The translations under genes and the position numbers were made by a program. Below the pieces are notes generated by a model. The model had not been told where the DNA came from. It ran no database searches and saw nothing but the letters and a program-made list of their open reading frames with translations. 64,000 nt of DNA, from the NCBI GenBank assembly GCA_002507175.1, contig DAZE01000012.1, positions 25,134 through 89,133 of the forward strand. Reading direction: 5' to 3'. The DNA comes from Euryarchaeota archaeon UBA558. Lineage in GTDB: Archaea; Thermoplasmatota; Poseidoniia; Poseidoniales; Thalassarchaeaceae. Of the stretch, positions 3,449 to 62,830 are shown in pieces. Position 1 is the stretch's first letter, and each line of letters opens with the position of its first letter.

Positions 3449-3574
3449 AGCGTGTTGTGAATCCACGCACTGTGGTGATGTCACCCCCAAATGAAATCCT
3501 GTAATGCCCCACAATGCCATTTCATCCTCATATATCGCGACAAGTTCTATTTTCCTAGTCTACTAGATTTGGCC

Positions 3575-16000: not shown

Positions 16001-19000
16001 GGGCGATCCGGATGTCGGTTATGGCGATGATTGGAATGAACCAATGTCAGTAGGGCCAGTTGGGGTAGGCCAAACCGATTCTGACTATTCCTACGTTTCA
16101 TGGGATTATTACGCAGAGGGAGACTATCTCGTAGATCAATTTGGTAACATACAGACAGTCAGGGACCAAGCGGCATTATTCATAGAATGGACGAAACAAG
16201 GCCAATCATACAATGGGCTTGTCCAAGGATCATGGGTCGATCTGAACGAAAATGGCATCCAACGGACGAATATCGAGGATCCGCAGTTTCATGCCTGCGA
16301 AGACTTCGACAATGACGGGAATTATGATGAAGCTGAATACTTTGGAGATTTCGGAGACCGGGGATATTACACTTGGTTCGACTCTGAACAGATCGTGAAA
16401 TCGGTTGTACTCGATCTTACTCACATCATCCTGGAGAACAGGACATCGGACGAGACCTTCCAATGGAGGGATGAATGCACCTCACTGGAAGGCTCAGAAG
16501 TGACTCTCACTTGGAGATTCATCTCTAACGGAGATGGTATAAACGGAAACGCTGGATTAGCCGGCTTCGCAATTGACAATATCCGATTCGAGGAATTCAC
16601 CTTCGAAGATGACGGAAATTACAGTGTGGAGGTCAATGGCCTTGACTCCCAGGAGAGTCAAATCGTCAACCTCGGAACTCATGACTTCGACTCTGGGTTG
16701 TACAGGATCGACGTCCGAACAATTTTTGACAACAACGATCCAACGCAGAAATGGTACAACGCTGAGGAGGTTAATCCAAGTAACAACTTCTCCAAGGTCC
16801 AATTTTCAATAGATAGCGCAGAAATCACCCTTTTGCAGCCAAATGTTCTTGATTGTGTTGGAGATGTGACTTATGAGTGCGTTTATCCCATCAGTCCGAC
16901 CTCAGCACACACATTCTCATTGCCAATACTCAACGGTGTGATCGAGGGCGTTTACGAGGTGACTATGTCCATCCTCGACACAACTACTGGCCAGATGGTC
17001 TGGCAGGCAACCTCTGATAATGGGCCATTCGACCTAGTTCCACATCAGCGAGCCTTCGCGAATTGGACACTCGGAAGTAATGCACAGTTAGGCTCAACTG
17101 GAATGTTCAATTCCTGGGAGCCAGGAAGGGCATACAACTTGAGTTGGGACGCGAAGCTAGTCTCGGACGACTCAGAAAATGGAAACAAGAGATACTTTGA
17201 GATTACCTTCATGGACAATATCGATGTAGCTATACTTTCCAATCCAACCGACCAAAACCGCCTCCAGAGAGTCAAATCTGACTTGGAAGCAATGGGGATG
17301 ACCTACACTCAGTTCCGAACCAATGAGTGGGAGGACTATGTAACCGCAGATTGGACAGGTGTCTACCACAAGGTACTACTTCCATGGCAAACGGATTATA
17401 ATGCTGAATACGGAGATTATTATGAAAAGCTCAGCGAGGTAAGAGCTAGTGGCCTTTCAGTGATAGACGTCCTAGACAACTTCATGGTCAATGGTGGCAC
17501 ACTCCAGGTCCACTTAGGCCCATACAGGAATGACTACGTCCCAGACAACCTCCCATTTGGGATGGACATCCAAGAGAGGAATCCAGCCAACTCATCAATT
17601 AGATTCGACTACGATGATGTTCGAGTGATCGATAGATATCACCCACTCCTCGGAGGAGTTGACCTGACTGCGTTGCAGGGGGTCCACGGTGGACAATATG
17701 TCGCCTTGTCAGGCCTGGACATTTCACAGGTCCTTCCCAACCAAGTTCCTGCCGCTTGTGGTGGCAGGATATCTGATCCATTGGGCACCTTCCACAGCCT
17801 GCTGGGTAGCGTAGAATACGGCTCACAGTCTCTGTTGAGCCTATGCAACAGAGGGAATGGTGGCATGGTAGTCACAACATTGGATGTCGAGAACCCCAGC
17901 TTTTCTGAGCCTTATGGGGGCCAGACCATGCCTTTGCTATCGAATATGCTCGGCTACTCGGTGACTCCATATCCATTCGATTTTGGAATCGCAGGCGACA
18001 CGTTCGACCTGACCATAAACGGAGTCTCTCCCTCGATTAACACGGTCACTAAGGCCTACAACACGGTCTACATCAAGTCCAACTCAGAACTACAGTTCAG
18101 CTATGTTTCGGATGCGACTGATTTGATCGCAGACTGGACACTAGAGCCAGGTGGCGAAGACGCCGTGACTGGTTGGAACAGTGAAATAGTGGATCCAGGC
18201 GAATTTTCGCACGTTTCCCAGTCTTCTGCGGAGATACCCACACTAGGATCATTCTGCGTTGAGAGTACGTTGTCCTCGACTGGTTGCTTCATCGGTGCTG
18301 AATGGCTGTTGACGCTGTACCTACACGATGCTGAGGGCCATACTAGAATGACCTATGTGCGACTCATAACAAACGATACTCTTGCCGACGAGTCAGATCC
18401 AACGGCATCGATCAATCTCGTCGAGGACTCATTGACCGACGAGTACGTGGAAGACGACGGTACCAAGACCGTTGCCGGCACAAATTGGGATGTGCACAGG
18501 GTCAGACTAACCCCAACTGGCGACATAACCCTGTCTTTCTCAGGGGCGGAAAGCAACGATGCAGACGCTCCTGAGGGAGAAAGCGGCATACAGATGTACT
18601 CATGGAGGGTATATTTCGACTACCCAGTCACATCCCAACCCAGCCTTGATGGCCATGTCTTTGACATACCCGCGACCGCCGGAGGGGACTCCTTTAGCTA
18701 TACCTTCAGGAATGTCACCAGCGACGGCACACTTGAGAACCAGATAAGGCTCGAATTAATTGTATATGACAAAGCAGGGAAGTCCTCTTCAAAAGCAAGG
18801 ATGTACTTTGTGGTGGTTGGAGAGGATTTCGGTGACGAACCACCGGTCGTGACCTTCACTTCACCTAAGCCGAATGACTCCCAGACAGCAGATCGAGTCA
18901 CAATCAGCGGAAGCGTCGCCTCAGGAGCGGAGAACTCCGACGTGAGGATACAAGTTGCCCTAGCAGATCCTCTGATCCTAGATCTGTCGCCAACGCCTAA

Positions 19001-19499
19001 GGCTACTCAGAAGCAAATTGGCAAGTACAACGAAACAGGATTGCTGGGAGATGGCTCTACCTTCTCAATAACCCTCGATATCTCTGACCTGTACTCCGAG
19101 AGTGAGGGAGTACTCTCGACGGTGCATATTCGGGTAATCGAAGGAGATGGACAAAGGTACACCATATCTTCGAGTGAGGACATATACCTCCTCAAGCGAA
19201 GCAGCGATCCGTGCGTCAGAGATCCCTCAGCTGCAGGTTGCGATTCAGGGGTACAAGGTATCGGCCTTGTTATCCCTGTAGTCGGTGGTTTACTTCTAGT
19301 CCTCGCAATCGCAGGAGTAACACTAGCCATGAGGGGCAGGACAGGAACTACTGTGAGCGATGAGATACGATCCTTCCAAGGAGTCCAGGATCTGGATCCC
19401 GTGGAGGCATACGTCCAGCAGATGGTAGGCCAGGGGTATCCAGAAGATTATGCAAGGCAGTACGCGCAGGACTACTACGCTAACCTCAACAAGAAATGA
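13044..19499 (+). CDS. Giant surface protein (2,151 aa) with an FG-GAP / integrin-alpha-like propeller and a C-terminal membrane anchor
   Basis: Signal/anchor AITLVAMMVSMTMLSLIPAASA. Five Ca-loop repeats (DLDCDGDNDIV, DIDGDEMPDIV, DIDDDGDDDIV, DTDGDGIVDMV, DVNGDGEMDFF). Long acidic body. One C-terminal TM helix (GLVIPVVGGLLLVLAIAGVTLAM) followed by a ~55-aa Tyr/acidic tail. Confidence 0.85.
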   Translation: MRSVGKPKGNENRRAKAITLVAMMVSMTMLSLIPAASASQITQYAVQRDPHYVDTGDLDCDGDNDIVASSSMGFYLTSMFNDGSGGFPDRQDIFIAGGVGDSQRQNIFQTANSQQIQIADIDGDEMPDIVYFQENVRFVGETFVRPANLTVIWGECNKNTHQWERDIIEIPSHPFSQGMDIGDIDDDGDDDIVLATMAPDGGQTYLEVFKGPDPGPQADQTILIPAPTYGHYSYIELGQWGEDLAGDPITGQTLPGECEDLDLWVLRTPRFNPGAGYSVGNYDNMTVLEYDCVTGLYADPNIGGSGAAAVHDFTLDAEHGYELQIDVEDTDGDGIVDMVAAVDGIEGRISYATRSSVGSNWDTRNYINLGNYKGASITISDVNGDGEMDFFIPTELTLTRLQDSSSRNQTYTTVENLRELNSVEIILSNGQGTGYLSPISFDVGRRPTVAAPAQLKGDDTTAQEIIIGQRDYSYRFGSGAMWMDSLGWPGAGDFLSVLTLDNQDVAIDGLTIAPASTDPATGDAQLGEGTRFVNVTLMNTGLNPVSGSVDLDLSVKEVVGGVDTLVYSNDFDGNEDKTNCTGCTWTGASYTSDFAPGTSWHAETGSTAETENVSTYEADHNPTAYMWAGLDYNGTAENNSGYFNNMDEAFILEDIDLTGADAAFLDVSILCSVAFTNLFLSEPYVVQERWLYEDSCGIEAFSEGRGWESVWFQGGYDLDRYFNILQLNQDPELEIKNFAIYPQYVTEWTNYTEGGDEDEEINTLDAIDLTPYAGEVIDLRFRFRSGLYGSVGTADTSYDTGLDGFAFDNITIIKRNTVFGQEQSISQQVNFQPLVAGEEREITLSADFLDNTTYYISTGLTNFNGFVDQDPINDALKFQTTVKNLYDPGLVADPFVDFEPGVRYASAEYPIEIKVQNFGNTITNWTTEAEIFNALPDLTAIEDFSGINPIWSDDGNENGTRLDDSTTSNQVLPQNQGVFKNYAYWLGDPDVGYGDDWNEPMSVGPVGVGQTDSDYSYVSWDYYAEGDYLVDQFGNIQTVRDQAALFIEWTKQGQSYNGLVQGSWVDLNENGIQRTNIEDPQFHACEDFDNDGNYDEAEYFGDFGDRGYYTWFDSEQIVKSVVLDLTHIILENRTSDETFQWRDECTSLEGSEVTLTWRFISNGDGINGNAGLAGFAIDNIRFEEFTFEDDGNYSVEVNGLDSQESQIVNLGTHDFDSGLYRIDVRTIFDNNDPTQKWYNAEEVNPSNNFSKVQFSIDSAEITLLQPNVLDCVGDVTYECVYPISPTSAHTFSLPILNGVIEGVYEVTMSILDTTTGQMVWQATSDNGPFDLVPHQRAFANWTLGSNAQLGSTGMFNSWEPGRAYNLSWDAKLVSDDSENGNKRYFEITFMDNIDVAILSNPTDQNRLQRVKSDLEAMGMTYTQFRTNEWEDYVTADWTGVYHKVLLPWQTDYNAEYGDYYEKLSEVRASGLSVIDVLDNFMVNGGTLQVHLGPYRNDYVPDNLPFGMDIQERNPANSSIRFDYDDVRVIDRYHPLLGGVDLTALQGVHGGQYVALSGLDISQVLPNQVPAACGGRISDPLGTFHSLLGSVEYGSQSLLSLCNRGNGGMVVTTLDVENPSFSEPYGGQTMPLLSNMLGYSVTPYPFDFGIAGDTFDLTINGVSPSINTVTKAYNTVYIKSNSELQFSYVSDATDLIADWTLEPGGEDAVTGWNSEIVDPGEFSHVSQSSAEIPTLGSFCVESTLSSTGCFIGAEWLLTLYLHDAEGHTRMTYVRLITNDTLADESDPTASINLVEDSLTDEYVEDDGTKTVAGTNWDVHRVRLTPTGDITLSFSGAESNDADAPEGESGIQMYSWRVYFDYPVTSQPSLDGHVFDIPATAGGDSFSYTFRNVTSDGTLENQIRLELIVYDKAGKSSSKARMYFVVVGEDFGDEPPVVTFTSPKPNDSQTADRVTISGSVASGAENSDVRIQVALADPLILDLSPTPKATQKQIGKYNETGLLGDGSTFSITLDISDLYSESEGVLSTVHIRVIEGDGQRYTISSSEDIYLLKRSSDPCVRDPSAAGCDSGVQGIGLVIPVVGGLLLVLAIAGVTLAMRGRTGTTVSDEIRSFQGVQDLDPVEAYVQQMVGQGYPEDYARQYAQDYYANLNKK

Positions 19500-42338: not shown

Positions 42339-43177
42339 TTGGGACCTTTATCGAGGGCTTCGATCAATTCTATGTGCTTCCGGGGGATGCTCTCGAATCC
42401 CGTGCTGGCCATATTGATTGTTGATACAGTCCCATCAGCTGAAATTCCCACAGAAAAGGCAACTCCTCCTTCAGGAAAATCCCAAGCCTCCCGCAGTCGA
42501 AGTTTCTGGTACGAGCCAATAAAGTCGGCGGAATTCTCCGGAAGTTGGATGTGTGTCACTATTTCCCCGGTTTCCAAGACGTTCCTCGTTATGCCATCCT
42601 CTTGGAAGAAATCTTCCAGTAACATGCTTCGAGTACCTCTGTGAGATGCCAGGTGGATTCTGGCATCCAAGCACATCAATGCTGGGGCAAGATCGCCCTG
42701 ATAAGTTGCGACGCATAGCTCATTCTGATTTGGAATCACTCTGCAATCTGCACCAGTGCCCTCATCGCACTTGTGGCAGTAATCTATGGATTTCCTCCAT
42801 GTTTCAGATTGGTTCAGCCAGAAACACCGGGTGTCCAAGCACAGGTTCCCTCCTAGTGTGCCAGATCTTCGAATCATCACGCTTGCGATTGTCCCCGCAG
42901 CTTCAACGATCAGAGGATGAGCGACAGTTGACTCTACAATGTCCTGAAGCCTCACCATTGCACCAATCCTTGTTGCCGATATGCCTTTGAGTTCACTAAC
43001 TCCGAATATAGAAATGACGTGAGGCTTTGGGTTTATTCCCCATTTATAGTTTGGAATCAAATCCGTACCTCCGGATATCCAGTCAAAATCATGTCCGCCC
43101 TCATGCAAATGCTTTGCTGTTTCGAGGGCATCATCGAGAGTTTTTGGCATGTGGACTTCAAATGCAGGCGTCTTCAT
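42182..43177 (-). CDS. Mo-hydroxylase FAD-binding medium subunit (CoxM/XdhB-like)
   Basis: FEVHMPKTLDDAL..ISGGTDLIP, GTLGGNLC and the C-terminal PPAYRKKMASVLARRAMEE. ATGA overlap with the large subunit gene. Confidence 0.85.
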   Translation of the reverse strand: MKTPAFEVHMPKTLDDALETAKHLHEGGHDFDWISGGTDLIPNYKWGINPKPHVISIFGVSELKGISATRIGAMVRLQDIVESTVAHPLIVEAAGTIASVMIRRSGTLGGNLCLDTRCFWLNQSETWRKSIDYCHKCDEGTGADCRVIPNQNELCVATYQGDLAPALMCLDARIHLASHRGTRSMLLEDFFQEDGITRNVLETGEIVTHIQLPENSADFIGSYQKLRLREAWDFPEGGVAFSVGISADGTVSTINMASTGFESIPRKHIELIEALDKGPNWALEAERLGAELKRAVRPVLNTWFPPAYRKKMASVLARRAMEETSKRVTSG

Positions 43178-45951
43178 TCAACTCCCTCCATGTGTCTTCG
43201 CTCTTTGTGCAGCCAAGCACTGCCGGCGAGTTTTGGATTCTCCAGATATTCTTGATCCGGAAGGACTTGAACAGTCCAGTCCGGATCATTTTCCTCCGGG
43301 GGTCCTGTGTCATGACGATTGAACAATTGCCCGTTGTAGTAGGCATCTGGATTTGGATTTAAGCGCCTTTCTCTATCACGTTTTGCGTGATCTTTTGCCC
43401 TTCGAATTAGTATATCAGAGAGGGGGGTCTGCTCTAGGGAGGGGTTAGGAAGATCCCTAGGATCTTTAATGCCCTGTTGTTTGCAAGCTTTCTCTATGGA
43501 TCTGTACAATCTGTCAGGGGTTAGTGGCAACTCATTGGTCCTCACCCCGATGGCGTCATAGACTGCATTACAAACTGCTGGAAGTATGGGTAGGAGAGGG
43601 CCTTCGCCAGCCTCTTTGGCACCAAAAGGCCCCTCTGGATCATTCGACTCGACGATAATAGGGACAACCTCCGGCATTTCATGAACCGTCGGTATCTTGT
43701 ATCCTAATAGGTCTGGATTGAGGAGATTGCCAGTCCTTCCGTACTTCATTTCCTCAGATATGACTTGTCCCAATCCCATGTGGCAAGATCCGATGATCTG
43801 CCCTTCCACGGAGAGTGGATTCAGTGCCTTACCACAGTCGTGCGCAGCCCAGACTTTCTCAACCTTGATCCGCCCTGTCTCTATGTCAACGTCTACTTCT
43901 GCCACATAAGCGGAGAAAGAATAAGCAGGAGCCAGTCCGGCCGCAGCCCCCTTGTGCATTTTCCCCATGGGTGGAGTTCTGTAGGATCCAGAGGCGATCA
44001 AAGCGCCCCTGTCTTCTTGTGCCTTGTGTAGCGCTTGGAGATAAGATACGCCGACAGCAGGATCCTTTTTGTTGAAAATCCTCCTGTCCCCCAGCACCAA
44101 ACAAGAGGCTTCAACTCCCGTGATTAATGACGCTGCCTCAATCAACTCGGACCGGACCTCCATTGCTGCGGAAACTGCAGCATTTGCATTCATGAATGTG
44201 ACTCTGCTAGAGTAAGAACCGAGGTCTACCGGAGACGTATCTGACTCCTTTGATCTTATTCTAATCATGTCCATCGGAAGGCCCAATACCTCAGCGACTG
44301 CTTGACCGACTACCGTGTCGGATCCCTGTCCGATGTCTGCGGCACCGGTATGAATCGTTACTCCTCCGTCCATGTCTATCTTCAGATGTACTGTGGCATG
44401 AGGAAACTTGTTGGGATCCCAGTGTATGGGAAGACCACTTCCAGATATGAAGAATCCACATCCGACACCTATCCCCTTTCCGAGCGGCATCTTTCTGAAT
44501 TTTTTATCCCACCCTGACTCCTTGCGGACCCTCTCCAGGCATTCTCTCATTCCGATCGATGTCACCCTAAAACCGGTAATTGTCGCAGAATGCGGGGGAA
44601 GCAAATTAGCCAGCCGCAGGTCGATGGGGTCCACGCCCAACTCTTCCGAAATATGGTCAATTCCCACTTCCACGGCACACCTAGAATTCACTGCACCGTG
44701 CCCCCTCATGGCTCCACTGGCGGGCTTGTTTGTCCAGACCCTTGCTCCGGTGTAGTGGAATGCTCCAATCTCATAAGGTGCCGTATGCAAAACACCGTTG
44801 TAGTAAGTGGTCACATGCCCGAACGAGGCGAATCCGCCCCCGTCAATCAAAGCATCAGTTTCAATCCCACTGAATCTTCCCTCTTTGTCGGCATGAATAG
44901 CCATCGAAATCCTTGATGGGTGGCGCCCTCTGTTCGTCCAGAACACCTCCTCTCTATCGAAGGTGATTCTAACTGGCCTACCGCTTTTTCTTGCAAGAAT
45001 GGCCGCGCACATCTCGTGAGGAAAAGGATCCGACTTGCCGCCAAAGCCACCCCCGACATACGTCCTGTGGACATTTATTTGATGCATTGGAATGTCCAAT
45101 ACATCTGCTAAGGCCCTATGAACGTAATGAGGCACTTGTTGCGGGGTGTAGAGGGTTAATCGGCCCCGAGGATCCCAATGAGCGACAACAGCATGCGGCT
45201 CGGTAAATCCATGGTTTACCCCTTTGAAAGTCCACTCGTTTTCATAGGATGCAATTGAGTTCTTCAAGTCTGATATTCTCCCAAATCTTTGGAAAACTCT
45301 TTTCTGAACATTTGACTCACCTATGTGATATATGTCCCTGTCGTGAATAGGGTCTGGTGAATCTTTAAGCCCGTCCCTCATGTCAAAAATAGGCTCTAGA
45401 TCTTGGTATTCTATCCTAACTGCAGCGGACGCCAGCCTCGCAGTTTCTTCGTCTTCAGCCGCGACACAAGCAACAATATCGCCAATATGCCTGACCTTCT
45501 CCAGTGCCATTGCATGCTCGTCCTTCGTGACGGGGAGGACTCCGAAAGCTGATGGCGCATCGATGCCTGTAGCGGTCGCCAAGACACCGGGAATTGATTC
45601 GACATCGGTCATGTCAATAGATAGGACTTTTGCATAATGACGGTCGCTTCGCACAAGGCGACCAATAATTTCTCCGGGCAGCCGGACATCGTCACCATAC
45701 ACAGCCTGTCCGGTCACCTTCCATCTGCTGTCGATCAATGGCGTTCTTTTTCCTATGATCCTACCAGTGACCAAGTCATCATGGCGATGGGGGCCCCATG
45801 GTTGGTCCAATTCCCCCCCTTGGCTTTGAGGAATCATACTGGGATCTCTTTTTTCCGAATTGGGCGATGAGCCGCCTGATCCTGGCCTAGTGAAGTCAAG
45901 CTTGCCAGGCTGTTGGCGATACCCGACGATCTCTTTCTTGTCTTCTGGCAT
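43174..45951 (-). CDS. Mo-hydroxylase molybdopterin-binding large subunit (xanthine dehydrogenase / aldehyde oxidoreductase / CoxL family)
   Basis: KVTGQAVYGDDVRLPGEIIGRLVRS (a/b hammerhead), GGGFGGKS, GAMRGHG and FGAKEAGEGPLLP (catalytic Glu region). The ATG at 45951 (MPEDKK) lies 4 nt after the small-subunit stop; the track ORF opens at 46041. Confidence 0.9.
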   Translation of the reverse strand: MPEDKKEIVGYRQQPGKLDFTRPGSGGSSPNSEKRDPSMIPQSQGGELDQPWGPHRHDDLVTGRIIGKRTPLIDSRWKVTGQAVYGDDVRLPGEIIGRLVRSDRHYAKVLSIDMTDVESIPGVLATATGIDAPSAFGVLPVTKDEHAMALEKVRHIGDIVACVAAEDEETARLASAAVRIEYQDLEPIFDMRDGLKDSPDPIHDRDIYHIGESNVQKRVFQRFGRISDLKNSIASYENEWTFKGVNHGFTEPHAVVAHWDPRGRLTLYTPQQVPHYVHRALADVLDIPMHQINVHRTYVGGGFGGKSDPFPHEMCAAILARKSGRPVRITFDREEVFWTNRGRHPSRISMAIHADKEGRFSGIETDALIDGGGFASFGHVTTYYNGVLHTAPYEIGAFHYTGARVWTNKPASGAMRGHGAVNSRCAVEVGIDHISEELGVDPIDLRLANLLPPHSATITGFRVTSIGMRECLERVRKESGWDKKFRKMPLGKGIGVGCGFFISGSGLPIHWDPNKFPHATVHLKIDMDGGVTIHTGAADIGQGSDTVVGQAVAEVLGLPMDMIRIRSKESDTSPVDLGSYSSRVTFMNANAAVSAAMEVRSELIEAASLITGVEASCLVLGDRRIFNKKDPAVGVSYLQALHKAQEDRGALIASGSYRTPPMGKMHKGAAAGLAPAYSFSAYVAEVDVDIETGRIKVEKVWAAHDCGKALNPLSVEGQIIGSCHMGLGQVISEEMKYGRTGNLLNPDLLGYKIPTVHEMPEVVPIIVESNDPEGPFGAKEAGEGPLLPILPAVCNAVYDAIGVRTNELPLTPDRLYRSIEKACKQQGIKDPRDLPNPSLEQTPLSDILIRRAKDHAKRDRERRLNPNPDAYYNGQLFNRHDTGPPEENDPDWTVQVLPDQEYLENPKLAGSAWLHKERRHMEGVE

Positions 45952-45955
45952 TGAT

Positions 45956-46522
45956 TCAGCCTCCGAAGCCCGGATCTGGATCACTCGCTGGCTCAGTAAT
46001 GGGCTTATTTTGAATCCCCTCCGAGAGAATCTTCGATGCACTCATTATTGAATCGACTATTTGTTGATAGCCTGTGCACCTGCACAGGTTTCCTTCAATT
46101 GCATCCATTGCCTCTTGTCGAGTTGGGGTAGGATTTGTTTCCAACAAAGCCGCACTTGTGACTAGGAACCCCGGAGTACAAAATCCACATTGACTGCCCC
46201 CACACTCGGCAAACATCTCTTGAATGGGATGTAGATGATGTCCGTCAGAAAGTCCCTCTACTGTGGTTACTTGACGGTCTTTTGCCTCTAAAGCCAAGGT
46301 CATGCATGATAATCTTGGTTTACCATCAATCAACACGGTGCAGCACCCACAGGTCCCCATGTCACACCCCCTCTTGGTGCCCAGTGATCCGATACCGTCC
46401 CTGAGTACATCGAGTAGAACGTCATAATTTTTGATGATTGTTTGCACTTGTTTCCCATTTACTGATGCAGTCCAGACCTCCACTGGGGGGTTGCCTGCCA
46501 AGGGGAGTGGATGGGATGCCAT
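45956..46522 (-). CDS. Mo-hydroxylase [2Fe-2S] small subunit (CoxS-like)
   Basis: GCDMGTCGCCTV, CGFCTPG and LCRCTGY are the two 2Fe-2S binding patterns. Confidence 0.9.
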   Translation of the reverse strand: MASHPLPLAGNPPVEVWTASVNGKQVQTIIKNYDVLLDVLRDGIGSLGTKRGCDMGTCGCCTVLIDGKPRLSCMTLALEAKDRQVTTVEGLSDGHHLHPIQEMFAECGGSQCGFCTPGFLVTSAALLETNPTPTRQEAMDAIEGNLCRCTGYQQIVDSIMSASKILSEGIQNKPITEPASDPDPGFGG

Positions 46523-50958: not shown

Positions 50959-53790
50959 TTAGAGTATTCTTTTGATGTGGCGGATCAATAATTCCACATC
51001 AGGAATGGTGTGGTCCTCCAGTGGTGGCGAGAAAGGAACTGGTACGTCAAGAGCCCCAATTACCACAGGGGGCGACTCAAGCGACCAGAATGATCCTTCT
51101 AGGACTGCAGAGGATATTGTGTGGCCAAAGCCACCAGTCCATTGCGCCTCTTGAAGTACAATCATACGCCCAGTCTTGTTAACTGATTGGATGCAGGTGT
51201 CTCTGTCGAACGGATTCAAAGTCCTCAGGTCGATAACTTCAACATCGATGCCCTCCGTTGAGAGTTTTCTTGAGGCATTCATGGCAACATGAACCATTGC
51301 ACCCCATGTTATGACAGTGACGTCCTCGCCAGGAGCTACAATTCGTGCCTTACCTATGGTGTGTCTCCCTTCACGTACTCTTTCTCTGACTGAATGGGTA
51401 TCTACATTCTGGCTTATCCGATCACCCCAACCAGTCAGACCTCCGCGCAAACCGTACAAGCCAATGTGCTCAAACAAGACAAATGGGTCATTCAGAGAGT
51501 GCCCCTCAATGAGTAGATCATAGGCATCTTGGGGGTTTGAGGGAAATCCGATTATCAGACCGGGGTCGTTTAGAAACCAAGATTCGATAACGTTTGCATG
51601 AAAGGGCCCACTCCTGGTTTTCCCACCAAGCGGGATTCTAACTGTAAGCGGGACCTCGGCCCCCCACCTCCATCTTAGTTGGGCCGCATTGTTAACGAGA
51701 GCATTCATTGCAAGGGCTGCGAAACCCCCGAACTGAATCTCGGCGATGGGTCGCAAGCCTCCTATTGCAGCACCAGTTGCGCTGTTGATTATTATCGATT
51801 CGGACAATGGCATATCGAGAAGTTTACCTTCGTGACCCTTTGCTCTGAGTGCTAGGTTCAATCCGAATGCTCCCGCAACTTCCATGTCCTCCCCCATAAA
51901 CAGAGCATTTTCTCCTTCGTTGTCTGCAATATCGACCATTGCATTTTGAATGGCCCTGCTGAAAGTCCAAGCATTCGAAGCAGCCTCAAACTTCATTGGC
52001 CCGATTTCTGATTGGCTGGTTGATGGTTTGATGCTTTCAAGATCTTTGATTTGTTGATGATGTGTTCTGGCGTTTGTAAGTTTTGACGTTCCAATAGCGA
52101 CCGATTCAGGCTCGGGCCATTTCATTGATTCGACGGCCAATCGCGCCTCAGCACAACTGGCTTCCTCTTCGTCAGCAATCGATTTGAGCAATCTAGAGCT
52201 GACACCTATCGACCGTAGTAAACGCTCATGATTCTCGATTGGCTCCTTCTTTGACCAATATTCCATCAAATCTTCTCCGACGTAGCCAGGAGGATTGCCA
52301 TTCTCAGCACCCAAGTACAGATCGTCATGGTGATGCGCATGTCCGCAACCCCTCATTGTTTCAACATGGACAATGCATCCGCCACAGCCCGATACGGCCA
52401 ATTCACGGGCAACTGAGACTGATGCATAGTAAATTGCAGGATCAGACCCATCTATGCTCCATGCCGGAAGTCCCACGGAGGCCCCTTTGTCCCCGAATGT
52501 CTCCGCACCAGATTGTTTGTTGGAGAATGTATCTAGCGCAATTTGATTGTTTTGGATTATGTAGCATATAGGCAACCCCCTTGCTCCGGCGAAATTTATG
52601 GCCTCCCAGAACTCTCCACTGCTGCTGCAACCCTCTCCTACAGGTGCTAGAGTAAACCTCCCATCGCCCTTCCTAGAAGAAGCAAGTGCAATTCCTGTAG
52701 CAGTAGCGCTTGCTATTGGCAGTGGCGCAGTGGGGGGCAAGATTCCGTGACTCCAGTCTCCTATGTGTAGATCCCTGCCCCCGAAGTCAGAATGGCCCCC
52801 ATCCATTTTGGATCCTGACTTGCCCATCTGGGCGGACATAATAGACAAGGGCGTTTGACCCATAGAAAGTGCAAGTCCAAGGTCTCTGATCATAGGGGCC
52901 GCCACATCCTTGCCCGATTGCAGGGCTGTCCCGCATGCTGCAATCGGTTCTTGCCAAGTTGATCTGAACCCCTTGCCACCAAATTTTGTCCCATCTGGGG
53001 TTTCTACACCCTCGACGAATAACTCCTTCAAATGCCGATCCAATACTCTAGTCCTTATCATTAGCCTATGCCAATGAATACGCTCCTCCTTGGTTATCGA
53101 TGAAAGATATGCGAGCCTCCTCAACAAGAGACGCAAATCTAAGATTAACCTAGTCCTTTTCCTTGAGAGGTATAGTCTACCACCTCTCCTTGGCATAATT
53201 TCAGCCTGCAACACTCTATTTATTTTGTAGGTGTGAAGCCTGTCCTCAAATGCATCATAAATTAGATCGCAGAATAATTCCGACCATTTATGAAAATCCT
53301 CTCCGTTCATCGATTTTGGCCCAACACAGTTTTCGAGTACATCTCTCACAAGTTCCAAGTATCCGTCCCATCTTTCAGCTGTGAACCTAAGAATCTCCTC
53401 ACTCAACTCTACTGGGTCTATGGCTTTGTTAAATCTCAGATGGCTCACAGGCCTCCAATCGCCTCCCCATATTTTGGGCAAGTCAGATTGATTTCCGTCG
53501 TATGTCTCCGAATCCATGCTTATTGGGTGGTTTCTACTGTTAGCTTCATGATCTAGTTCCACACTAGTTGATTTTTCTCTGACCCAGACCCTGGCATCGG
53601 ACTTCCTCCCCTGTCCTGTCTGTGATCTCTCGATCATTATCCGGGTCCTTTCAGAACACTCAGAGCATTTTCTATCTAGGGCCTTTAAGCCCTTTTTTCC
53701 CGATTTCCAAGGTTGATGATGATTACATTTCGGACATCTCCAAATGCCCGATATTTCATAGACCATGTTATATCCAAACCGGACAGGCAC
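50959..53790 (-). CDS. Fused 2-oxoacid dehydrogenase E1 alpha+beta (TPP-dependent) with a ~230-aa N-terminal zinc-ribbon extension
   Basis: E1 alpha covers about aa 240-560 (GEGCSSSGEFWEAINFAGARGLPICYIIQNNQIA is the TPP motif). E1 beta covers about aa 600-943 (FMGEDMEVAGAFG.., ESIIINSATGAAIGGLRP, FPSNPQDAYDLL). The N-terminus has CPKC..(21 aa)..CSEC. GTG at 53790 or ATG at 53766. Confidence 0.8.
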   Translation of the reverse strand: MPVRFGYNMVYEISGIWRCPKCNHHQPWKSGKKGLKALDRKCSECSERTRIMIERSQTGQGRKSDARVWVREKSTSVELDHEANSRNHPISMDSETYDGNQSDLPKIWGGDWRPVSHLRFNKAIDPVELSEEILRFTAERWDGYLELVRDVLENCVGPKSMNGEDFHKWSELFCDLIYDAFEDRLHTYKINRVLQAEIMPRRGGRLYLSRKRTRLILDLRLLLRRLAYLSSITKEERIHWHRLMIRTRVLDRHLKELFVEGVETPDGTKFGGKGFRSTWQEPIAACGTALQSGKDVAAPMIRDLGLALSMGQTPLSIMSAQMGKSGSKMDGGHSDFGGRDLHIGDWSHGILPPTAPLPIASATATGIALASSRKGDGRFTLAPVGEGCSSSGEFWEAINFAGARGLPICYIIQNNQIALDTFSNKQSGAETFGDKGASVGLPAWSIDGSDPAIYYASVSVARELAVSGCGGCIVHVETMRGCGHAHHHDDLYLGAENGNPPGYVGEDLMEYWSKKEPIENHERLLRSIGVSSRLLKSIADEEEASCAEARLAVESMKWPEPESVAIGTSKLTNARTHHQQIKDLESIKPSTSQSEIGPMKFEAASNAWTFSRAIQNAMVDIADNEGENALFMGEDMEVAGAFGLNLALRAKGHEGKLLDMPLSESIIINSATGAAIGGLRPIAEIQFGGFAALAMNALVNNAAQLRWRWGAEVPLTVRIPLGGKTRSGPFHANVIESWFLNDPGLIIGFPSNPQDAYDLLIEGHSLNDPFVLFEHIGLYGLRGGLTGWGDRISQNVDTHSVRERVREGRHTIGKARIVAPGEDVTVITWGAMVHVAMNASRKLSTEGIDVEVIDLRTLNPFDRDTCIQSVNKTGRMIVLQEAQWTGGFGHTISSAVLEGSFWSLESPPVVIGALDVPVPFSPPLEDHTIPDVELLIRHIKRIL

Positions 53791-58800: not shown

Positions 58801-61800
58801 ATGACCTCGACGCGCAGAGCCGTAGCCCTGCTTATTTTGGCAACCCTGATCATCCCAATGACTGCGTCCCAAATCAATCCGGATCATGAGAGGGGGGGCC
58901 TCGATGCCATGGGGGAATGGCAACCCCGTCATGCACTCGAGATACACGACGAATGGTGGGAAGATTGGTCCAGAGATGCTAACCAAGACAGAATAGATGA
59001 CAGGCTAGAATGGCTATTGACACAACCAGAAGAAGTATATTCAAAATGGTGGAAGCGAGCGGAGTCTGGACAGGCTAGAGTTTTTGTTGACTACGACCAC
59101 CATCCTTCCACATCAGATGTTCGAGCATTGGAAGCCTTGGGCGCATCCGTTACAATGAGGCCGGTTTATCTTGATAGCCTCATAGCAAATGTTCCACTAG
59201 AGTTAATCCACCCATCCTCCGCCATACTGGAGCTACCTGGAGTTGTCATGATAGAGGATCTTGGTCTTGCAGAGACCCACATGAACGAGGCAGTACCAAA
59301 CATGGGGGTGGAAGAAGTTTGGGCGCAATATGGCTACGACGGAACAGGCGTCACAATCGCAGTTCTTGACACAGGAGTTCGGGGCGACCACGCAGGGTTG
59401 GATGACATGGATGACGAGATAACCCTTGGTTGCGATCAACCAGACCCAGATCCATTCAACCCCAATCCAATAGTACTCGACTGCGACCCTAAAATATCTG
59501 CATTTTATGACGCAGTAATCACCGACTCTGAGCAACCCGCTAGAGAGTCTTATGATTCGGGCACTCATGGTTCCCACGTCGCAGGCATCGCAGCCGGTAC
59601 TGGAGGAGGACAAGAGTCTCCAGATGGTTCGAGATACGTCGGAGTTGCCCCCGGGGCCTGGGTAATCAACATCATGGCATGTTGCGACGGAGACATCCAG
59701 GACATCATAGAAGGAGCCCAGTGGGCAATTGAGAATAAGGATGCAAAGAACATAGACATTCTCACATCATCTTTGGGAGAACAACAACTAGAGATCCACT
59801 TCGACAATGACGGCTCATCAGCGTGGAGCCAACAGATGGATGCAGTCGCCGCGTCTGGAATCATTACATTCCTCTCGGCTGGCAACGAATTTGGAGGAGC
59901 TACATTTGCTGGGTGTAATACAATAGACAGCCCGGGTGATGCCAACCTGCCGATCACAGTGGCAAGTCTGGACAAAGATCTGGGCCTAGCAATTTACTCG
60001 AGTAGAGGATATACATCCGACGGGCGAGTGAAACCCGACGTCTCAACAATTGGGTCAAATATCATGGCACCAGATGCCGCCACGTCAGACGGCTACACCA
60101 GCAAATCTGGGACTAGCATGGCAACACCCCTCATGGCGGGAATTGCAGCGTTAATGGTCGAGGCCAATCCAGACATAACCCACGACGAAGTAAAGTCGAT
60201 AATCAGCGCTGACTCTATTGAAAGAGATATCCAGCTCTTGGATGACCCAGGATTCAATGACTGCAGCATACTTGAGACTAGACCCGATAATGAGTTCGGG
60301 TACGGCCAGGCAGATCCCTTGGTATTCGTCCAATCGGCTGGAGCAATAGACTCAACCCTCAATGTGACCATGGATTTGGACACCCTGCAGCAAATTGGGA
60401 ACGAATCCAGAATTTCCGGCACCTCGACTGGAGGTGTCCCAGGGGTTGGCTATGTGGAGGTGAAAGTTGGAGGAGGAGAATGGCAGCAAGCAGCTGACCT
60501 TTCCTCAAATAATGACTGGTCATCCTGGAACGTCAAACTAACTCCGCACTCAGAGTCCGGGAATTCAACAGTATATTCCAGACTCGTGATCAATGAGGAT
60601 AGGATGTCACCAGTCGATGCCCGAAGAGTAATCCTGATCGACGGTCAGATGGGCTCTGGCTCTGGGGCCGGCGGTCAGACGACAATCGGTGCCTATGTTT
60701 TCTTGATCCCCTTCTTGGCCACTGTAGCCCTGTTAGGCATTACAGCCCTGAGAGAGGACTGGGCAAACACGACCCCTGCAAAGAAGAAAGATGATGAAAA
60801 CGACAGAATAGACGATGGCGTATCATCCTTGCACAAAAATCCACTGGATCCGTTTAGGACATTTGTGGTTGAGATGAGGCGTGGTGGCGCACTTACCGAG
60901 AACAAGTCTCGGAGACTCTTCACGCTGTGCATCCTCTATTTCGCTCAAGGCCTGCCATGGGGATTCGCCAGCGTAACTTTCGCAGCATATCTGGTGGACA
61001 ACGGCGTAGCAATAGGCGACGTCGCCATATTGTTTGCGACCGTCGCACTACCTTGGACCTTCAAATGGATCTGGGGCCCAGTTGTCGACGCAGTGAACAT
61101 ACCCAGATATGGCGCGAGGCGCCAATGGGTCTTGATTGCACAACTCGGTATGGTCCTCACGTTGGGGACATTATTGTTGGTTCCAGACCTCAATGCAGAG
61201 ATTGAATTGGTCACTAGGTTGCTATTCATACACAACATATTTGCCTCACTGCAAGATGTGGGTACCGATGCACTTGCCGTAGAGATTCTCCAACCAAATG
61301 AGGTAGCAAAAGCGAACGGATTCATGTTCGCCGCAAAGCGGGCGGGGATCATTGTTGGCGGTGCCGTACTCGGAGTCGCGGTGACGAAGATAGGTATCGG
61401 TGGAGTAATCGTAATTCAACTCGCATTACTGTCAATCATCGTAGCAGTGCCGCTTACAATGGTGGAGAGGCCGGGTGTCAAGCTATTCCCATGGTCGAAG
61501 TCAGAGGATGAGTGGTGGCTCTCCGTAACCGATGCGGACGGGAACACTGAAGAGGGTCAGGAGGCCACGGACCCCTGGCTCGCAGAGGATCGATTCAAGG
61601 TTGCAAAAACAGTTGGATACACCCTTGACAGCACTAAAATAACCATATCCGCATTTTTGGCAGTCATAGGCATTTCGATATGGATAATTGGCTTCGCAGT
61701 TGATGTCTTCACAATCGATTTCGGACTGGGCGACGATCTCAGGAATGTGACAAATCCAATCAGCTATTCAGCGCTAGCAATTTCCCTGCTTTTGATGGGG

Positions 61801-62592
61801 CTCTCCTACACAAGCGTGGCCACATCTGTGACCACCAAAGCAGTCAGAAACCCGCTATCTTTCCTTCCTCCTAGCACAAAAAGAGGCGTTGCCGAGACGT
61901 CCTTCTTCCTCACGAAGGCATTCTCGGTCAGATCAGCATTCTTGTTGATCGGGCTGTGCCTCCTGTCGGAGTTGTACATTTTCGTGGGGCCCATTGTCAT
62001 TGACATATTCATCAACGAAGCAGGCTGGTCTCAAGCCAAGTACAACGGGATAGTCGGTGGGGTGGTTGTGTTCGGGGCACTAATCGGCCAGATCGTGGGA
62101 GGCCTACTCGGCGACAGGTTCGGAGTGAGGAGGGTTGCAATGGTTGGATTTACATCATTGGCACTGGCAAACGCGGGGCTGGCATTCCTCCAATCCATGT
62201 GGGAAAATACCTCTGTGATGACCATTTACCTCATCATCCAGGCATTTGTTGGTGGCATGGCTTGGATTTGCATCATATCCCTGAGCATGAGACTCACATG
62301 GAGTAAGGTCGGAGGAACACAATTCACCGCATACATGTCTCTGTTCAATCTCTCTGGCGTATTTGCTTACACCCTTACTGAGAGGATGATATCCGTGTTT
62401 GACTACACTTCAGCAATCTACATCGGTGCTGCGCTGACATTGATTACAGTCTTCATGCTAGTGTTCATAGATGAGGATGAAACTGACAGAATACTCGAGG
62501 AAGGCGACCCAGTGGGAACCGATGAACAGAACTCGACTAGTACCGACTCGTTTGAGGTGACAGGAGATGAACAACCCTATGTCGCAGTTTGA
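58801..62592 (+). CDS. Subtilisin-like (S8) serine protease fused to an AmpG/PAT-family MFS permease
   Basis: Single frame. Contains a signal peptide (AVALLILATLIIPMTASQ), the S8 triad (AVLDTGV, HGSHVAG, GTSMATP) and a TM helix at 60685-60750. A multi-TM MFS domain follows, with LYFAQGLPWGF and FKWIWGPVVDAVNIPRYGARRQWVL (AmpG-like). The track ORF opens with TTG at 58774; ATG at 58801. Confidence 0.8.
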   Translation: MTSTRRAVALLILATLIIPMTASQINPDHERGGLDAMGEWQPRHALEIHDEWWEDWSRDANQDRIDDRLEWLLTQPEEVYSKWWKRAESGQARVFVDYDHHPSTSDVRALEALGASVTMRPVYLDSLIANVPLELIHPSSAILELPGVVMIEDLGLAETHMNEAVPNMGVEEVWAQYGYDGTGVTIAVLDTGVRGDHAGLDDMDDEITLGCDQPDPDPFNPNPIVLDCDPKISAFYDAVITDSEQPARESYDSGTHGSHVAGIAAGTGGGQESPDGSRYVGVAPGAWVINIMACCDGDIQDIIEGAQWAIENKDAKNIDILTSSLGEQQLEIHFDNDGSSAWSQQMDAVAASGIITFLSAGNEFGGATFAGCNTIDSPGDANLPITVASLDKDLGLAIYSSRGYTSDGRVKPDVSTIGSNIMAPDAATSDGYTSKSGTSMATPLMAGIAALMVEANPDITHDEVKSIISADSIERDIQLLDDPGFNDCSILETRPDNEFGYGQADPLVFVQSAGAIDSTLNVTMDLDTLQQIGNESRISGTSTGGVPGVGYVEVKVGGGEWQQAADLSSNNDWSSWNVKLTPHSESGNSTVYSRLVINEDRMSPVDARRVILIDGQMGSGSGAGGQTTIGAYVFLIPFLATVALLGITALREDWANTTPAKKKDDENDRIDDGVSSLHKNPLDPFRTFVVEMRRGGALTENKSRRLFTLCILYFAQGLPWGFASVTFAAYLVDNGVAIGDVAILFATVALPWTFKWIWGPVVDAVNIPRYGARRQWVLIAQLGMVLTLGTLLLVPDLNAEIELVTRLLFIHNIFASLQDVGTDALAVEILQPNEVAKANGFMFAAKRAGIIVGGAVLGVAVTKIGIGGVIVIQLALLSIIVAVPLTMVERPGVKLFPWSKSEDEWWLSVTDADGNTEEGQEATDPWLAEDRFKVAKTVGYTLDSTKITISAFLAVIGISIWIIGFAVDVFTIDFGLGDDLRNVTNPISYSALAISLLLMGLSYTSVATSVTTKAVRNPLSFLPPSTKRGVAETSFFLTKAFSVRSAFLLIGLCLLSELYIFVGPIVIDIFINEAGWSQAKYNGIVGGVVVFGALIGQIVGGLLGDRFGVRRVAMVGFTSLALANAGLAFLQSMWENTSVMTIYLIIQAFVGGMAWICIISLSMRLTWSKVGGTQFTAYMSLFNLSGVFAYTLTERMISVFDYTSAIYIGAALTLITVFMLVFIDEDETDRILEEGDPVGTDEQNSTSTDSFEVTGDEQPYVAV

Positions 62593-62830
62593 GGGGCTTG
62601 ATACAGAGTTCCTCTTGTTCACCAAGGATGTCTGTGGCTACTGCGTAGCAGCAAAAAATCTACTCAATAGCAAGGGACTCACATACACTGAGGTCAACCT
62701 CCAGCAAGATCACGAGCTAAGGAATGCCCTGATAATGGAAACCGGCCACAAGACAGTGCCGATAATTTTTGACCTCAGGTCGGACGTCTTATTCGTTGGG
62801 GGCTATACCGAATTGAAGAATGCACTCTAG
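62567..62830 (+). CDS. Glutaredoxin/NrdH-like small redoxin
   Basis: LLFTKDVCGYCVAAKNLL (CxxC), TVPIIF and GGYTEL. Overlaps the end of the fusion gene by 26 nt; an alternative ATG lies at 62579. Confidence 0.8.
   Translation: MNNPMSQFEGLDTEFLLFTKDVCGYCVAAKNLLNSKGLTYTEVNLQQDHELRNALIMETGHKTVPIIFDLRSDVLFVGGYTELKNAL

Follow-up and report, generated by a model that had tools for sequence, protein, structure and literature searches.

A subtilisin-type protease fused to an AmpG/SLC33A1-group permease is conserved across Poseidoniales, with exchangeable ectodomains at its locus

Does a protein that carries a protease at one end and a membrane transporter at the other really exist, and if so, what would a cell use it for? 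The question is raised by a stretch of 64,000 nucleotides (the window) from contig DAZE01000012.1 of Euryarchaeota archaeon UBA558 (Thalassarchaeaceae), in which one long open reading frame (ORF) joins a subtilisin-family (S8) protease domain to a permease of the major facilitator superfamily (MFS). Comparison of this gene, called S8-MFS below, with its homologues leads us to conclude that both halves truly belong to one polypeptide, which Poseidoniales (Marine Group II) have conserved throughout the order.

The initial annotation had described an uninterrupted frame of 1,263 residues, and this is borne out: the ORF at 58801-62592 on the forward strand contains no stop or frameshift, and direct reading of the letters across the junction of the two halves (nt 60600-60960) reveals neither a stop nor a change of frame. 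Since almost all aligned homologues keep M1, translation probably starts at the ATG (an alternative TTG is given in Table 1). A locus scan with one genome per GTDB species yielded 171 loci, the best 80 of which were evaluated for the fusion, and both halves are contiguous and in a single frame at 78 of these 80 species loci, one of them on a 1.3-Mb contig. Single-cell Poseidoniales genomes (L010, L014 and L015, AG-... isolates) also carry the fusion. The frameshift or chimeric join that the initial annotation had wished to see excluded is thus answered by a fusion conserved over a whole archaeal order, and we reject an assembly or annotation error, including two genes read as one, because the frame is continuous and the independent species genomes agree, single-cell genomes among them; purifying selection on the domains that flank the junction speaks against it as well. 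No support for such an artefact was found, the sole short forms being a distinct protease-only gene in another context, and its probability is negligible. Two of these short forms (L074 and L080) were considered as split versions of the fusion and rejected, since each encodes the protease alone, as a gene in its own right that has a stop, a basic tail and a constant context and no MFS gene downstream. Apparent second copies in one metagenome-assembled genome (MAG) were rejected as paralogues, L004/L005 and L007/L066 being near-identical duplicate contigs; L020/L027 (MAG UBA181) probably stem from a mixed-population bin and are not paralogues, because the copies are divergent yet syntenic. The window holds no further copy of either half.

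The same domain order, S8 then MFS, recurs in all of more than 120 full-length clusters returned by a homologue search (57-98% identity), the kind of search that the initial annotation had proposed for other archaeal genomes. Nearly all of the clusters listed are 1,241-1,330 residues long, with one partial of 1,202 residues, and they derive from NCBI, JGI, ENA, Tara and Logan assemblies, JGI naming them automatically as 'subtilisin family serine protease/MFS family permease'. Named sources are all Poseidoniales (Marine Group II) or Thalassarchaeaceae, barring one 'Neomarinimicrobiota' MAG contig. This contig (L076, NZWI01000049.1), binned as 'Candidatus Neomarinimicrobiota bacterium', carries an archaeal S8-MFS gene in archaeal synteny and is probably misbinned. 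Gene by gene, the proteins of the window are 96-99% identical to those of a contig of 'Euryarchaeota archaeon UBA487'. When 1.84 billion representatives were searched exhaustively, just two clusters with both halves were found among the best 150, that of Marine Group II and P0122, which is 48% identical and whose source is named 'Marine Group III euryarchaeote'; the fusion is therefore old, and confined to the class Poseidoniia.

Selection was estimated domain by domain on close pairs, as the Nei-Gojobori ratio of nonsynonymous to synonymous substitution rates (dN/dS). We find that dN/dS is 0.00-0.01 in the S8 domain, 0.00-0.05 in transmembrane helices (TM) 1-6 and 0.00-0.06 in TM7-12, with values of 0.09-0.47 in the extra helix that precedes the MFS (TM0) and its linker, 0.10-0.20 in the central insertion and 0.24-0.7 in the C-terminal tail. 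The transporter bundles are as constrained as the catalytic domain, which excludes that the permease is a decaying membrane anchor.

The ectodomain begins with a predicted signal peptide that has an RR n-region, a hydrophobic core at residues 7-22 (7-25 on the hydropathy plot) and then P-M-T-A-S | Q, with P19 and S23 invariant; this prediction and that of the topology are based on hydropathy, charge distribution and the helix map of an AlphaFold2 (AF2) model. The S8 domain matches Peptidase_S8 (PF00082) over the full length of the model (positions 1-288) at 155.1 bits, compared to a cutoff of 21.8. All three triad strings named in the initial annotation (AVLDTGV, HGSHVAG and GTSMATP) are present, and two sets of homologues, one of 13 and one of 22, show no variation at D190 (VLDTG), H256 (HGSH), the oxyanion residue N362 (AGNE) or S439 (GTSMATP), from which we infer that the ectodomain is an active protease. 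Among solved structures, its closest relative is a subtilisin-like serine protease, PDB entries 3afg and 9ues (E 1e-35, residues 250-474). An I9-like propeptide, also proposed in the initial annotation, was not recovered, as no Pfam family, I9 included, matches the pro-region even at E 10; a beta-alpha-beta-beta...beta stretch at residues 91-151 of the AF2 model hints at one and may be a propeptide (predicted local distance difference test, pLDDT, 71-85 for residues 90-150, in a model that is poor overall). Indeed, the model of the N-terminal half is poor (pLDDT 50.7), with only residues 91-151 and 515-615 confident, so that only the Ig-like domain is meaningfully searchable by structure. N-x-S/T sequons are conserved in the ectodomain at N534 and N588, with N534/S536 and N588/S589/T590 invariant.

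The helix IGAYVFLIPFLATVALLGITAL (TM0) lies exactly at nt 60685-60750, and a charged linker follows it, about 50 residues long compared to the approximately 55 first estimated. An AF2 model of residues 620-1263 (pLDDT 72.8) consists of TM0, a disordered linker, six helices, a disordered acidic loop, two helices, six helices and a disordered acidic tail; after removal of the signal peptide this gives 15 helices, i.e., TM0 plus a 14-helix permease arranged as 6+2+6. The predicted topology places the N-terminus and the ectodomain on the outer side of the membrane and the C-terminus on the inner side, where the MFS core also begins and ends, as it does in all MFS proteins. This is the arrangement reasoned in the initial annotation (protease outside, one TM helix, MFS N-terminus inside), and hydropathy, charge distribution and the AF2 map support it, with basic residues concentrated behind TM0 as well as in loops 2-3 and 8-9. 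A further conserved sequon (N-T-S, residues 1136-1138, T1137 invariant) lies in loop 9-10, predicted to be an outer loop, and its position, like that of the sequons in the ectodomain, fits the predicted topology.

Profile searches on the two halves place Peptidase_S8 and MFS_1 each above threshold, the latter at 100.9 bits versus 33.4. BT1 (43.9 versus 22) and Acatn (38.3 versus 23.7) also exceed their thresholds on the permease half, the Acatn match being limited to model positions 2-87 of 546. The top NCBIfam match is the AmpG family TIGR00901, which scores 116.6 bits where 350 are required, and the AmpG models NF008238 (56.9 versus 756) and NF008867 (86.8 versus 656) likewise remain below their cutoffs; the second-best NCBIfam match is the RhtX/FptX siderophore transporter family. 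Among PDB sequences, only AmpG and SLC33A1 match at E < 1e-9 (E about 1e-10 with the single sequence; next MFS, E 0.045), and a profile search returns the same two relatives, AmpG at 3e-15 and SLC33A1 at about 3e-11. Foldseek with the permease model gives 298 PDB matches at E <= 0.001, with all 50 of the 50 listed being MFS transporters and AmpG the best (E 3e-12). The sequence signatures tell the same story: FKWIWGPVVDAVNIPRYGARRQWVL and ASLQDVGTDALAVEIL, singled out in the initial annotation, both occur in the protein and have their counterparts in motif A and TM4 of E. coli AmpG (PDB 9c3f), and the AmpG string quoted in that annotation matches this chain. Motif A in loop 2-3 (G759-P-V-V-D763...G771-A-R773-R774) is invariant, as are the extended residues K755, W758, P760, D763, R773, R774 and W776 and, within the TM4 motif S-L-Q-D819-x3-D823-A-L-A-V-[DE], Q818, D819 and D823; the C-bundle contains a second motif-A-like loop (G1104-D1105-R-F-G-V-R1110-R) and the signature GGTQFTAYM, and a number of polar residues of the permease are invariant too. 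On these profile and structure matches the permease belongs to the wider AmpG/SLC33A1 group (PAT, TC 2.A.1.25). The AmpG/acetyl-CoA-transporter type first suggested therefore holds for this wider group and not for AmpG proper: we do not consider the permease an AmpG orthologue because it scores below all NCBIfam AmpG cutoffs and its extra helix pair is central instead of C-terminal, where AmpG has TM13/14.

A glutaredoxin-family gene begins within the end of S8-MFS (Table 1); its best NCBIfam match is Grx3, below cutoff. At all 73 evaluable loci (L001-L078) this gene follows S8-MFS directly on the same strand, and its projected start lies within 50 nt of the fusion stop, at 71 of the 73 in fact 13-28 nt before it. 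The two genes are probably co-transcribed, and the overlap of start and stop suggests that they are translationally coupled. Across Poseidoniales, S8-MFS is a syntenic, apparently single-copy core gene in a fixed neighborhood of housekeeping genes. Divergently oriented upstream are DHBP synthase, a cytidylyltransferase-like protein, riboflavin synthase and lumazine synthase (the riboflavin genes), as well as thioredoxin reductase and a ThiF-rhodanese (MoeB-like) protein; a GHMP kinase gene often lies directly upstream on the strand of S8-MFS, and downstream are glutaredoxin, alpha/beta hydrolase, an unknown secreted protein and H+-pyrophosphatase. An operon clue to function was considered and rejected, as the neighbors other than glutaredoxin are housekeeping genes, whose conservation reflects synteny and not a common pathway. 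In Marine Group III the fusion gene has unrelated neighbors, tRNA-guanine transglycosylase upstream and an RRM protein downstream.

We next turn to relatives of the permease half. The nearest of these without an S8 domain are also proteins of ectodomain-TM0-MFS order, in which the ectodomain is an M28 peptidase module, a cupredoxin or a domain with no recognized identity (Table 1). When the MFS parts are aligned, the domain X protein P0123 groups with S8-MFS of Marine Group II in a clade that has the central helix pair (mutually 63-68% identical); P0124, without the hairpin, is 50-53% identical to these. A sister clade of 12-TM permeases without the central helices unites a short form with the fusions to M28, to cupredoxin and to domains X and Y (mutually 58-67% identical), the MFS of the cupredoxin fusion being ~58-63% identical to that of the M28 fusion. 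Common to all are the signatures LYxAQG[IL]P, LPWxxKFxWGPxxD...GRRRxW, SLQDVxxDALAVD, ERPGxxxFPW and GGTQFTAYM. M28-MFS is represented by about 57 clusters from 'Euryarchaeota/Thermoplasmatota archaeon' MAGs. Domain X matches no Pfam family, and a search for its homologues found only 15 clusters, mostly fragments shorter than the 882-residue protein. Separately, Thalassarchaeaceae M28 proteins of about 860-910 residues (P0334, P0332 and similar) have C-terminal halves that fall below the MFS_1 threshold and match Acatn weakly; these halves may be diverged or degenerate permeases.

The locus of S8-MFS is itself occupied by M28-MFS in some lineages and by domain X-MFS (P0349, P0123) in others. 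P0349, on a 1.5-Mb contig and 94% identical to P0123, pairs domain X-MFS with an overlapping glutaredoxin gene, and, judged by the identities of neighboring genes, the lineage with domain X falls inside the radiation that bears S8. The ectodomain thus varies at the locus while TM0-MFS and glutaredoxin stay, so that TM0-MFS with glutaredoxin is the constant unit and the ectodomain is exchangeable. The cupredoxin-MFS gene (L085 1686-3668, L086 730-2712) instead follows an acyl-CoA dehydrogenase gene, away from the S8-MFS locus. The protease also occurs on its own: in L074, L080 and P0121 an ectodomain 83-85% identical to that of the window is followed only by a single TM helix and a short tail of basic character, and on nine contigs this gene has a constant context that is distinct from the S8-MFS locus (SnoaL-like and GtrA-like genes). 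The protease is evidently able to work as a plainly anchored ectoenzyme. The protease-only gene may be a fission product in lineages where domain X replaced the protease.

Table 1. Coordinates of S8-MFS, its parts, the adjoining glutaredoxin gene and related genes. Positions in rows with a strand are those of the window; L-numbered positions are those of the respective loci.
Feature	Residues or form	Position	Strand	Basis or remark
S8-MFS fusion ORF	1,263 aa plus stop	58801..62592	+	ATG start
Alternative start of S8-MFS ORF	TTG	58774	+	would yield 1,272 aa
Predicted Sec signal peptide	1-23	58801..58869	+	hydropathy and conservation
N-terminal pro-region	24-180	58870..59340	+	no family match
Peptidase_S8 catalytic domain	181-502	59341..60306	+	Pfam E 3e-45
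Catalytic residues	D190; H256; oxyanion N362; S439	59368-59370; 59566-59568; 59884-59886; 60115-60117	+	
Ig-like/fn3-like beta-sandwich spacer	515-615	60343..60645	+	AF2 pLDDT 70-92; Foldseek Ig-like/fn3-like matches
Short tether, Gly/Ser-rich	616-628 (13 residues)	60646..60684	+	translation
TM0, extra helix, outside to inside	629-650	60685..60750	+	hydropathy 2.3, strong helix at residues 629-647; AF2 helix at residues 632-651, pLDDT 90
Charged cytoplasmic linker	651-700	60751..60900	+	variable; low model confidence
MFS N-bundle, TM1-6	701-890	60901..61470	+	profile matches, motifs, invariance
Central region	891-1035	61471..61905	+	acidic cytoplasmic loop and two extra TM helices (~residues 949-970 and 976-1002)
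MFS C-bundle, TM7-12	1036-1225	61906..62475	+	MFS_1 best stretch, residues 1061-1230; invariance
Acidic cytoplasmic C-terminal tail	1226-1263	62476..62589	+	translation
Glutaredoxin-family gene	87 aa, CGYC	62567..62830	+	Pfam Glutaredoxin E 9e-16; start overlaps fusion stop
Marine Group III S8-MFS	1,166 aa	L088-L090 5001-8501		~48% identical
M28-MFS/domain X-MFS genes at S8-MFS locus		L081/L082 4001-6610; L083 314-2923; L087 4001-6649		
Protease-only paralogue	659-679 aa	L074 5974-8013; L080 1333-3312; also P0121, L091-L096		
P0126	Peptidase_M28 module and MFS			
P0130	plastocyanin-type cupredoxin, TM helix and 12-TM MFS			C..H..M type-1 copper ligands
P0127, P0124, P0123	Cys-rich 'domain X' (about 220 aa) and MFS			
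P0129	another unknown domain and MFS			
P0158	C-terminal 3-keto-disaccharide-hydrolase-like domain and MFS			

Elsewhere in the window, an ORF of 2,151 residues (13044-19499, +) has FG-GAP-like repeats as its sole Pfam match and is probably a giant surface protein. The complementary strand encodes a 943-residue chain that unites E1_dh, Transket_pyr and Transketolase_C (50959-53790, -), a 955-residue molybdoenzyme of the xanthine dehydrogenase family (43174-46041, -) and a photolyase-related protein (DPRP plus FAD_binding_7; 1805-3520, -).

What might such a protein do? Our leading reading, drawn from sequence and standing a little short of an even chance, is that S8-MFS is a digest-and-import device. 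After cleavage of the signal peptide, a subtilisin-type protease would be placed on the outer face of the membrane, held by the Ig-like spacer and the 13-residue tether a few nanometers from the permease, with TM0 and the flexible cytoplasmic linker joining this ectodomain to the 14-helix AmpG/SLC33A1 (PAT) permease. The protease would cleave dissolved or particle-bound protein at the cell surface, and the tethered permease would import the products, driven by an ion gradient, before they diffuse away. The cargo would be oligopeptides, possibly with disulfides or glycans, and the glutaredoxin encoded downstream may reduce imported cargo that bears disulfides; we infer the direction of transport, the identity of the cargo and the role of glutaredoxin alike. 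We favor digest-and-import because a degradative-looking protease sits beside an equally conserved importer-type permease under strong purifying selection on both halves, because this locus also carries a fusion of the MFS subfamily with an unrelated aminopeptidase, M28, because a cytoplasmic disulfide reductase appears to be translationally coupled, and because the family is known to carry large molecules, some of them peptides in part (muropeptides; oxidized glutathione, GSSG, for SLC33A1, PMC12889552). The host guild, too, lives on extracellular protein: the accepted view of Marine Group II is that they degrade it, and one study reported an extracellular S8 peptidase in every MAG (PMC6864105, PMC6336850). 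Several observations weigh against this reading. For the AmpG/SLC33A1 family, no uptake of plain peptides is on record, and Marine Group II also possess an oligopeptide transporter (PMC6336850). A protease-only anchored paralogue exists, the positional orthologue in one lineage has a 220-residue Cys-rich domain X and no protease, and the 12-TM clade carries M28, a type-1-copper cupredoxin and two unknown domains as ectodomains. The glutaredoxin neighbor, for its part, is absent at the Marine Group III S8-MFS (L088-L090) and inverted at M28-MFS loci.

Some of these observations can be read to mean that the MFS is a generic frame, whose cargo has nothing to do with proteolysis and could be, for instance, a thiol/disulfide compound, a metal chelate or a cofactor, and which serves as a platform onto which ectodomains are grafted for co-localization, fixed stoichiometry or stable anchoring, with protease and transporter working independently. 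The near-identical 12-TM frames with differing ectodomains indeed suggest that the permease may do one job whatever the ectodomain: the MFS parts fused to cupredoxin, M28, domain X and domain Y are 58-67% identical and have all signature motifs in common, the ectodomain is swapped at a conserved locus where MFS and glutaredoxin are retained, and a siderophore transporter family, RhtX/FptX, is the second-best NCBIfam match. However, one TM helix suffices to anchor the same protease, so that anchoring alone fails to explain an order-wide 14-TM fusion; peptidases make up two of the three identifiable ectodomain types; and gene fusions of long persistence usually signal functional coupling. We regard an independent cargo as rather unlikely, if far from negligible.

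Two further possibilities keep protease and permease coupled and assign them other tasks. In the manner of AmpG, the protease could trim the surface (glyco)proteins of its own cell and the permease recover the fragments. AmpG is the closest solved relative, the acidic and lysine residues match AmpG K62, D125, D129 and D134, and the gene, apparently present in one copy per genome, belongs to the syntenic core and lies amid housekeeping genes, as might befit envelope turnover; yet the AmpG cutoffs are failed, K132 and Y59 are not kept, neither envelope-biogenesis nor peptidoglycan-recycling genes occur nearby in the neighborhood examined, and no peptidoglycan is known from the host archaeal group, which together make such recycling improbable. 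Export is less probable still: here the MFS would export a precursor that the external S8 domain processes, as in LanP-type leader peptidases or peptidase-containing ABC exporters. Motif A says nothing of transport direction, and the protease-transporter fusions known to date (C39 peptidase-ABC exporters) work in export. On the other hand, no precursor or biosynthetic genes occur in a neighborhood conserved over at least 73 loci, the nearest solved S8 relative (3afg) is annotated only as a subtilisin-like serine protease, and an M28 aminopeptidase variant is ill-suited to leader removal.

Digest-and-import may be one instance of something broader. Because non-peptidase ectodomains occur on the same transporter frame, we propose, as a possibility that is itself more doubtful than not, that Poseidoniia possess a class of 'ectodomain-tethered permeases', in which a constant TM0 and PAT-type MFS core combines with interchangeable S8, M28 and domain X modules at one locus, processing or capture is wired to uptake, and disulfide-bearing peptides are the cargo. 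The glutaredoxin pairing, together with the GSSG precedent of SLC33A1, would point to such a cargo; within the class, this pairing is that of Marine Group II, and the cupredoxin version lies elsewhere.

Both domains are ordinary, and the fusion is already in public databases under automatic names. In the literature searched we find no description of an S8-MFS or other peptidase-MFS fusion, or of AmpG in Marine Group II, and the work on Marine Group II peptidases, on AmpG structure and on SLC33A1 and glutathione does not describe the fusion. Genome papers on Marine Group II have presumably counted the gene as an extracellular S8 or 'sedolisin-like' peptidase; one survey counts 'extracellular S8 peptidase' without mention of a transporter half (PMC6864105). 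Three features deserve most attention in our view: that the whole order conserves the fusion, that ectodomains are exchanged at a single locus, and that glutaredoxin is coupled to it. Marine Group II are uncultured, rank among the most abundant planktonic archaea and are thought to use high-molecular-weight protein, and a conserved, strongly selected protease-permease fusion is a concrete, testable candidate for surface-coupled protein use in dilute seawater. The wider pattern, in which one MFS frame at a fixed locus takes different ectodomains and is coupled to a glutaredoxin, may outweigh the single fusion: if true, it would be an unrecognized design principle for nutrient acquisition, extend the biology of the AmpG/SLC33A1 family into archaea, make tethered permeases a covalent counterpart of 'selfish' uptake and, with disulfide-peptide cargo, provide a route to reduced sulfur and nitrogen for abundant ocean archaea.

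How does S8-MFS compare to systems that are already known? E. coli AmpG (PDB 9c3f, 8zgz, 9j9z), the closest solved match of the permease by both sequence and structure, imports large sugar-peptide cargo, GlcNAc-anhMurNAc-peptides, and the roles of its residues and its TM13/14 vestibule are known from cryo-EM work (PMC11568325). AmpG K62, W65, P67 and D70 correspond to K755, W758, P760 and D763 here, R80/R81 and W83 to R773/R774 and W776, and D125 and D129 of TM4 to D819 and D823, with the preceding glutamine kept (Q818); D134 is E828 here and Asp in most homologues. Not kept are Y59 (Trp here), S123 (Leu) and K132 (Ala). Identity to AmpG is about 16-20% and concerns the N-bundle only, the C-bundle, which holds the AmpG site residues K235/D238/E326, aligning weakly (5-9 bits). 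The extra helices of AmpG, TM13/14, are C-terminal and form a hydrophobic vestibule, whereas here the pair lies between TM6 and TM7 and an acidic tail follows TM12; unlike the fusion, AmpG has no ectodomain and no TM0. Human SLC33A1 (AT-1; PDB 9m0s, 9mun) scores like AmpG (E about 4e-10 with the single sequence, 2.5e-11 with the profile) and has in common with the permease WxPxxD...GRRxxW, QDxxxDxxA and an Ala at the position of AmpG K132, but it is a eukaryotic endoplasmic reticulum (ER) protein of 12 TM helices without an ectodomain. Its reported cargoes are acetyl-CoA and, according to a 2026 preprint, GSSG, moved from the lumen to the cytosol (PMC12889552); since this movement runs from the ER lumen to the cytosol, it is topologically import.

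On the protease side, the enzyme of 3afg/9ues resembles the ectodomain in that it, too, is archaeal and has a beta domain C-terminal to the S8 protease; annotated only as 'subtilisin-like serine protease', it has no TM anchor and no transporter. We take it to be Tk-SP of Thermococcus kodakarensis, a degradative enzyme and not a leader peptidase, presumably secreted and soluble. Cell-envelope proteinases are also among the PDB matches of the S8 domain, and for lactococcal PrtP, a cell-surface S8 protease, the oligopeptides that it yields are imported by the Opp and DtpT transporters. This is the same two-step logic as proposed here, but with separate proteins and other transporter families (ABC, POT). 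Direct coupling of peptidase and transporter has its own precedents in C39 peptidase-containing ABC exporters, where it is covalent and a cytoplasmic peptidase serves export, and in ACE2-B0AT1, where an ectopeptidase and an importer form a non-covalent complex; both differ from S8-MFS, the former in serving export, the latter in being non-covalent and made up of unrelated families.

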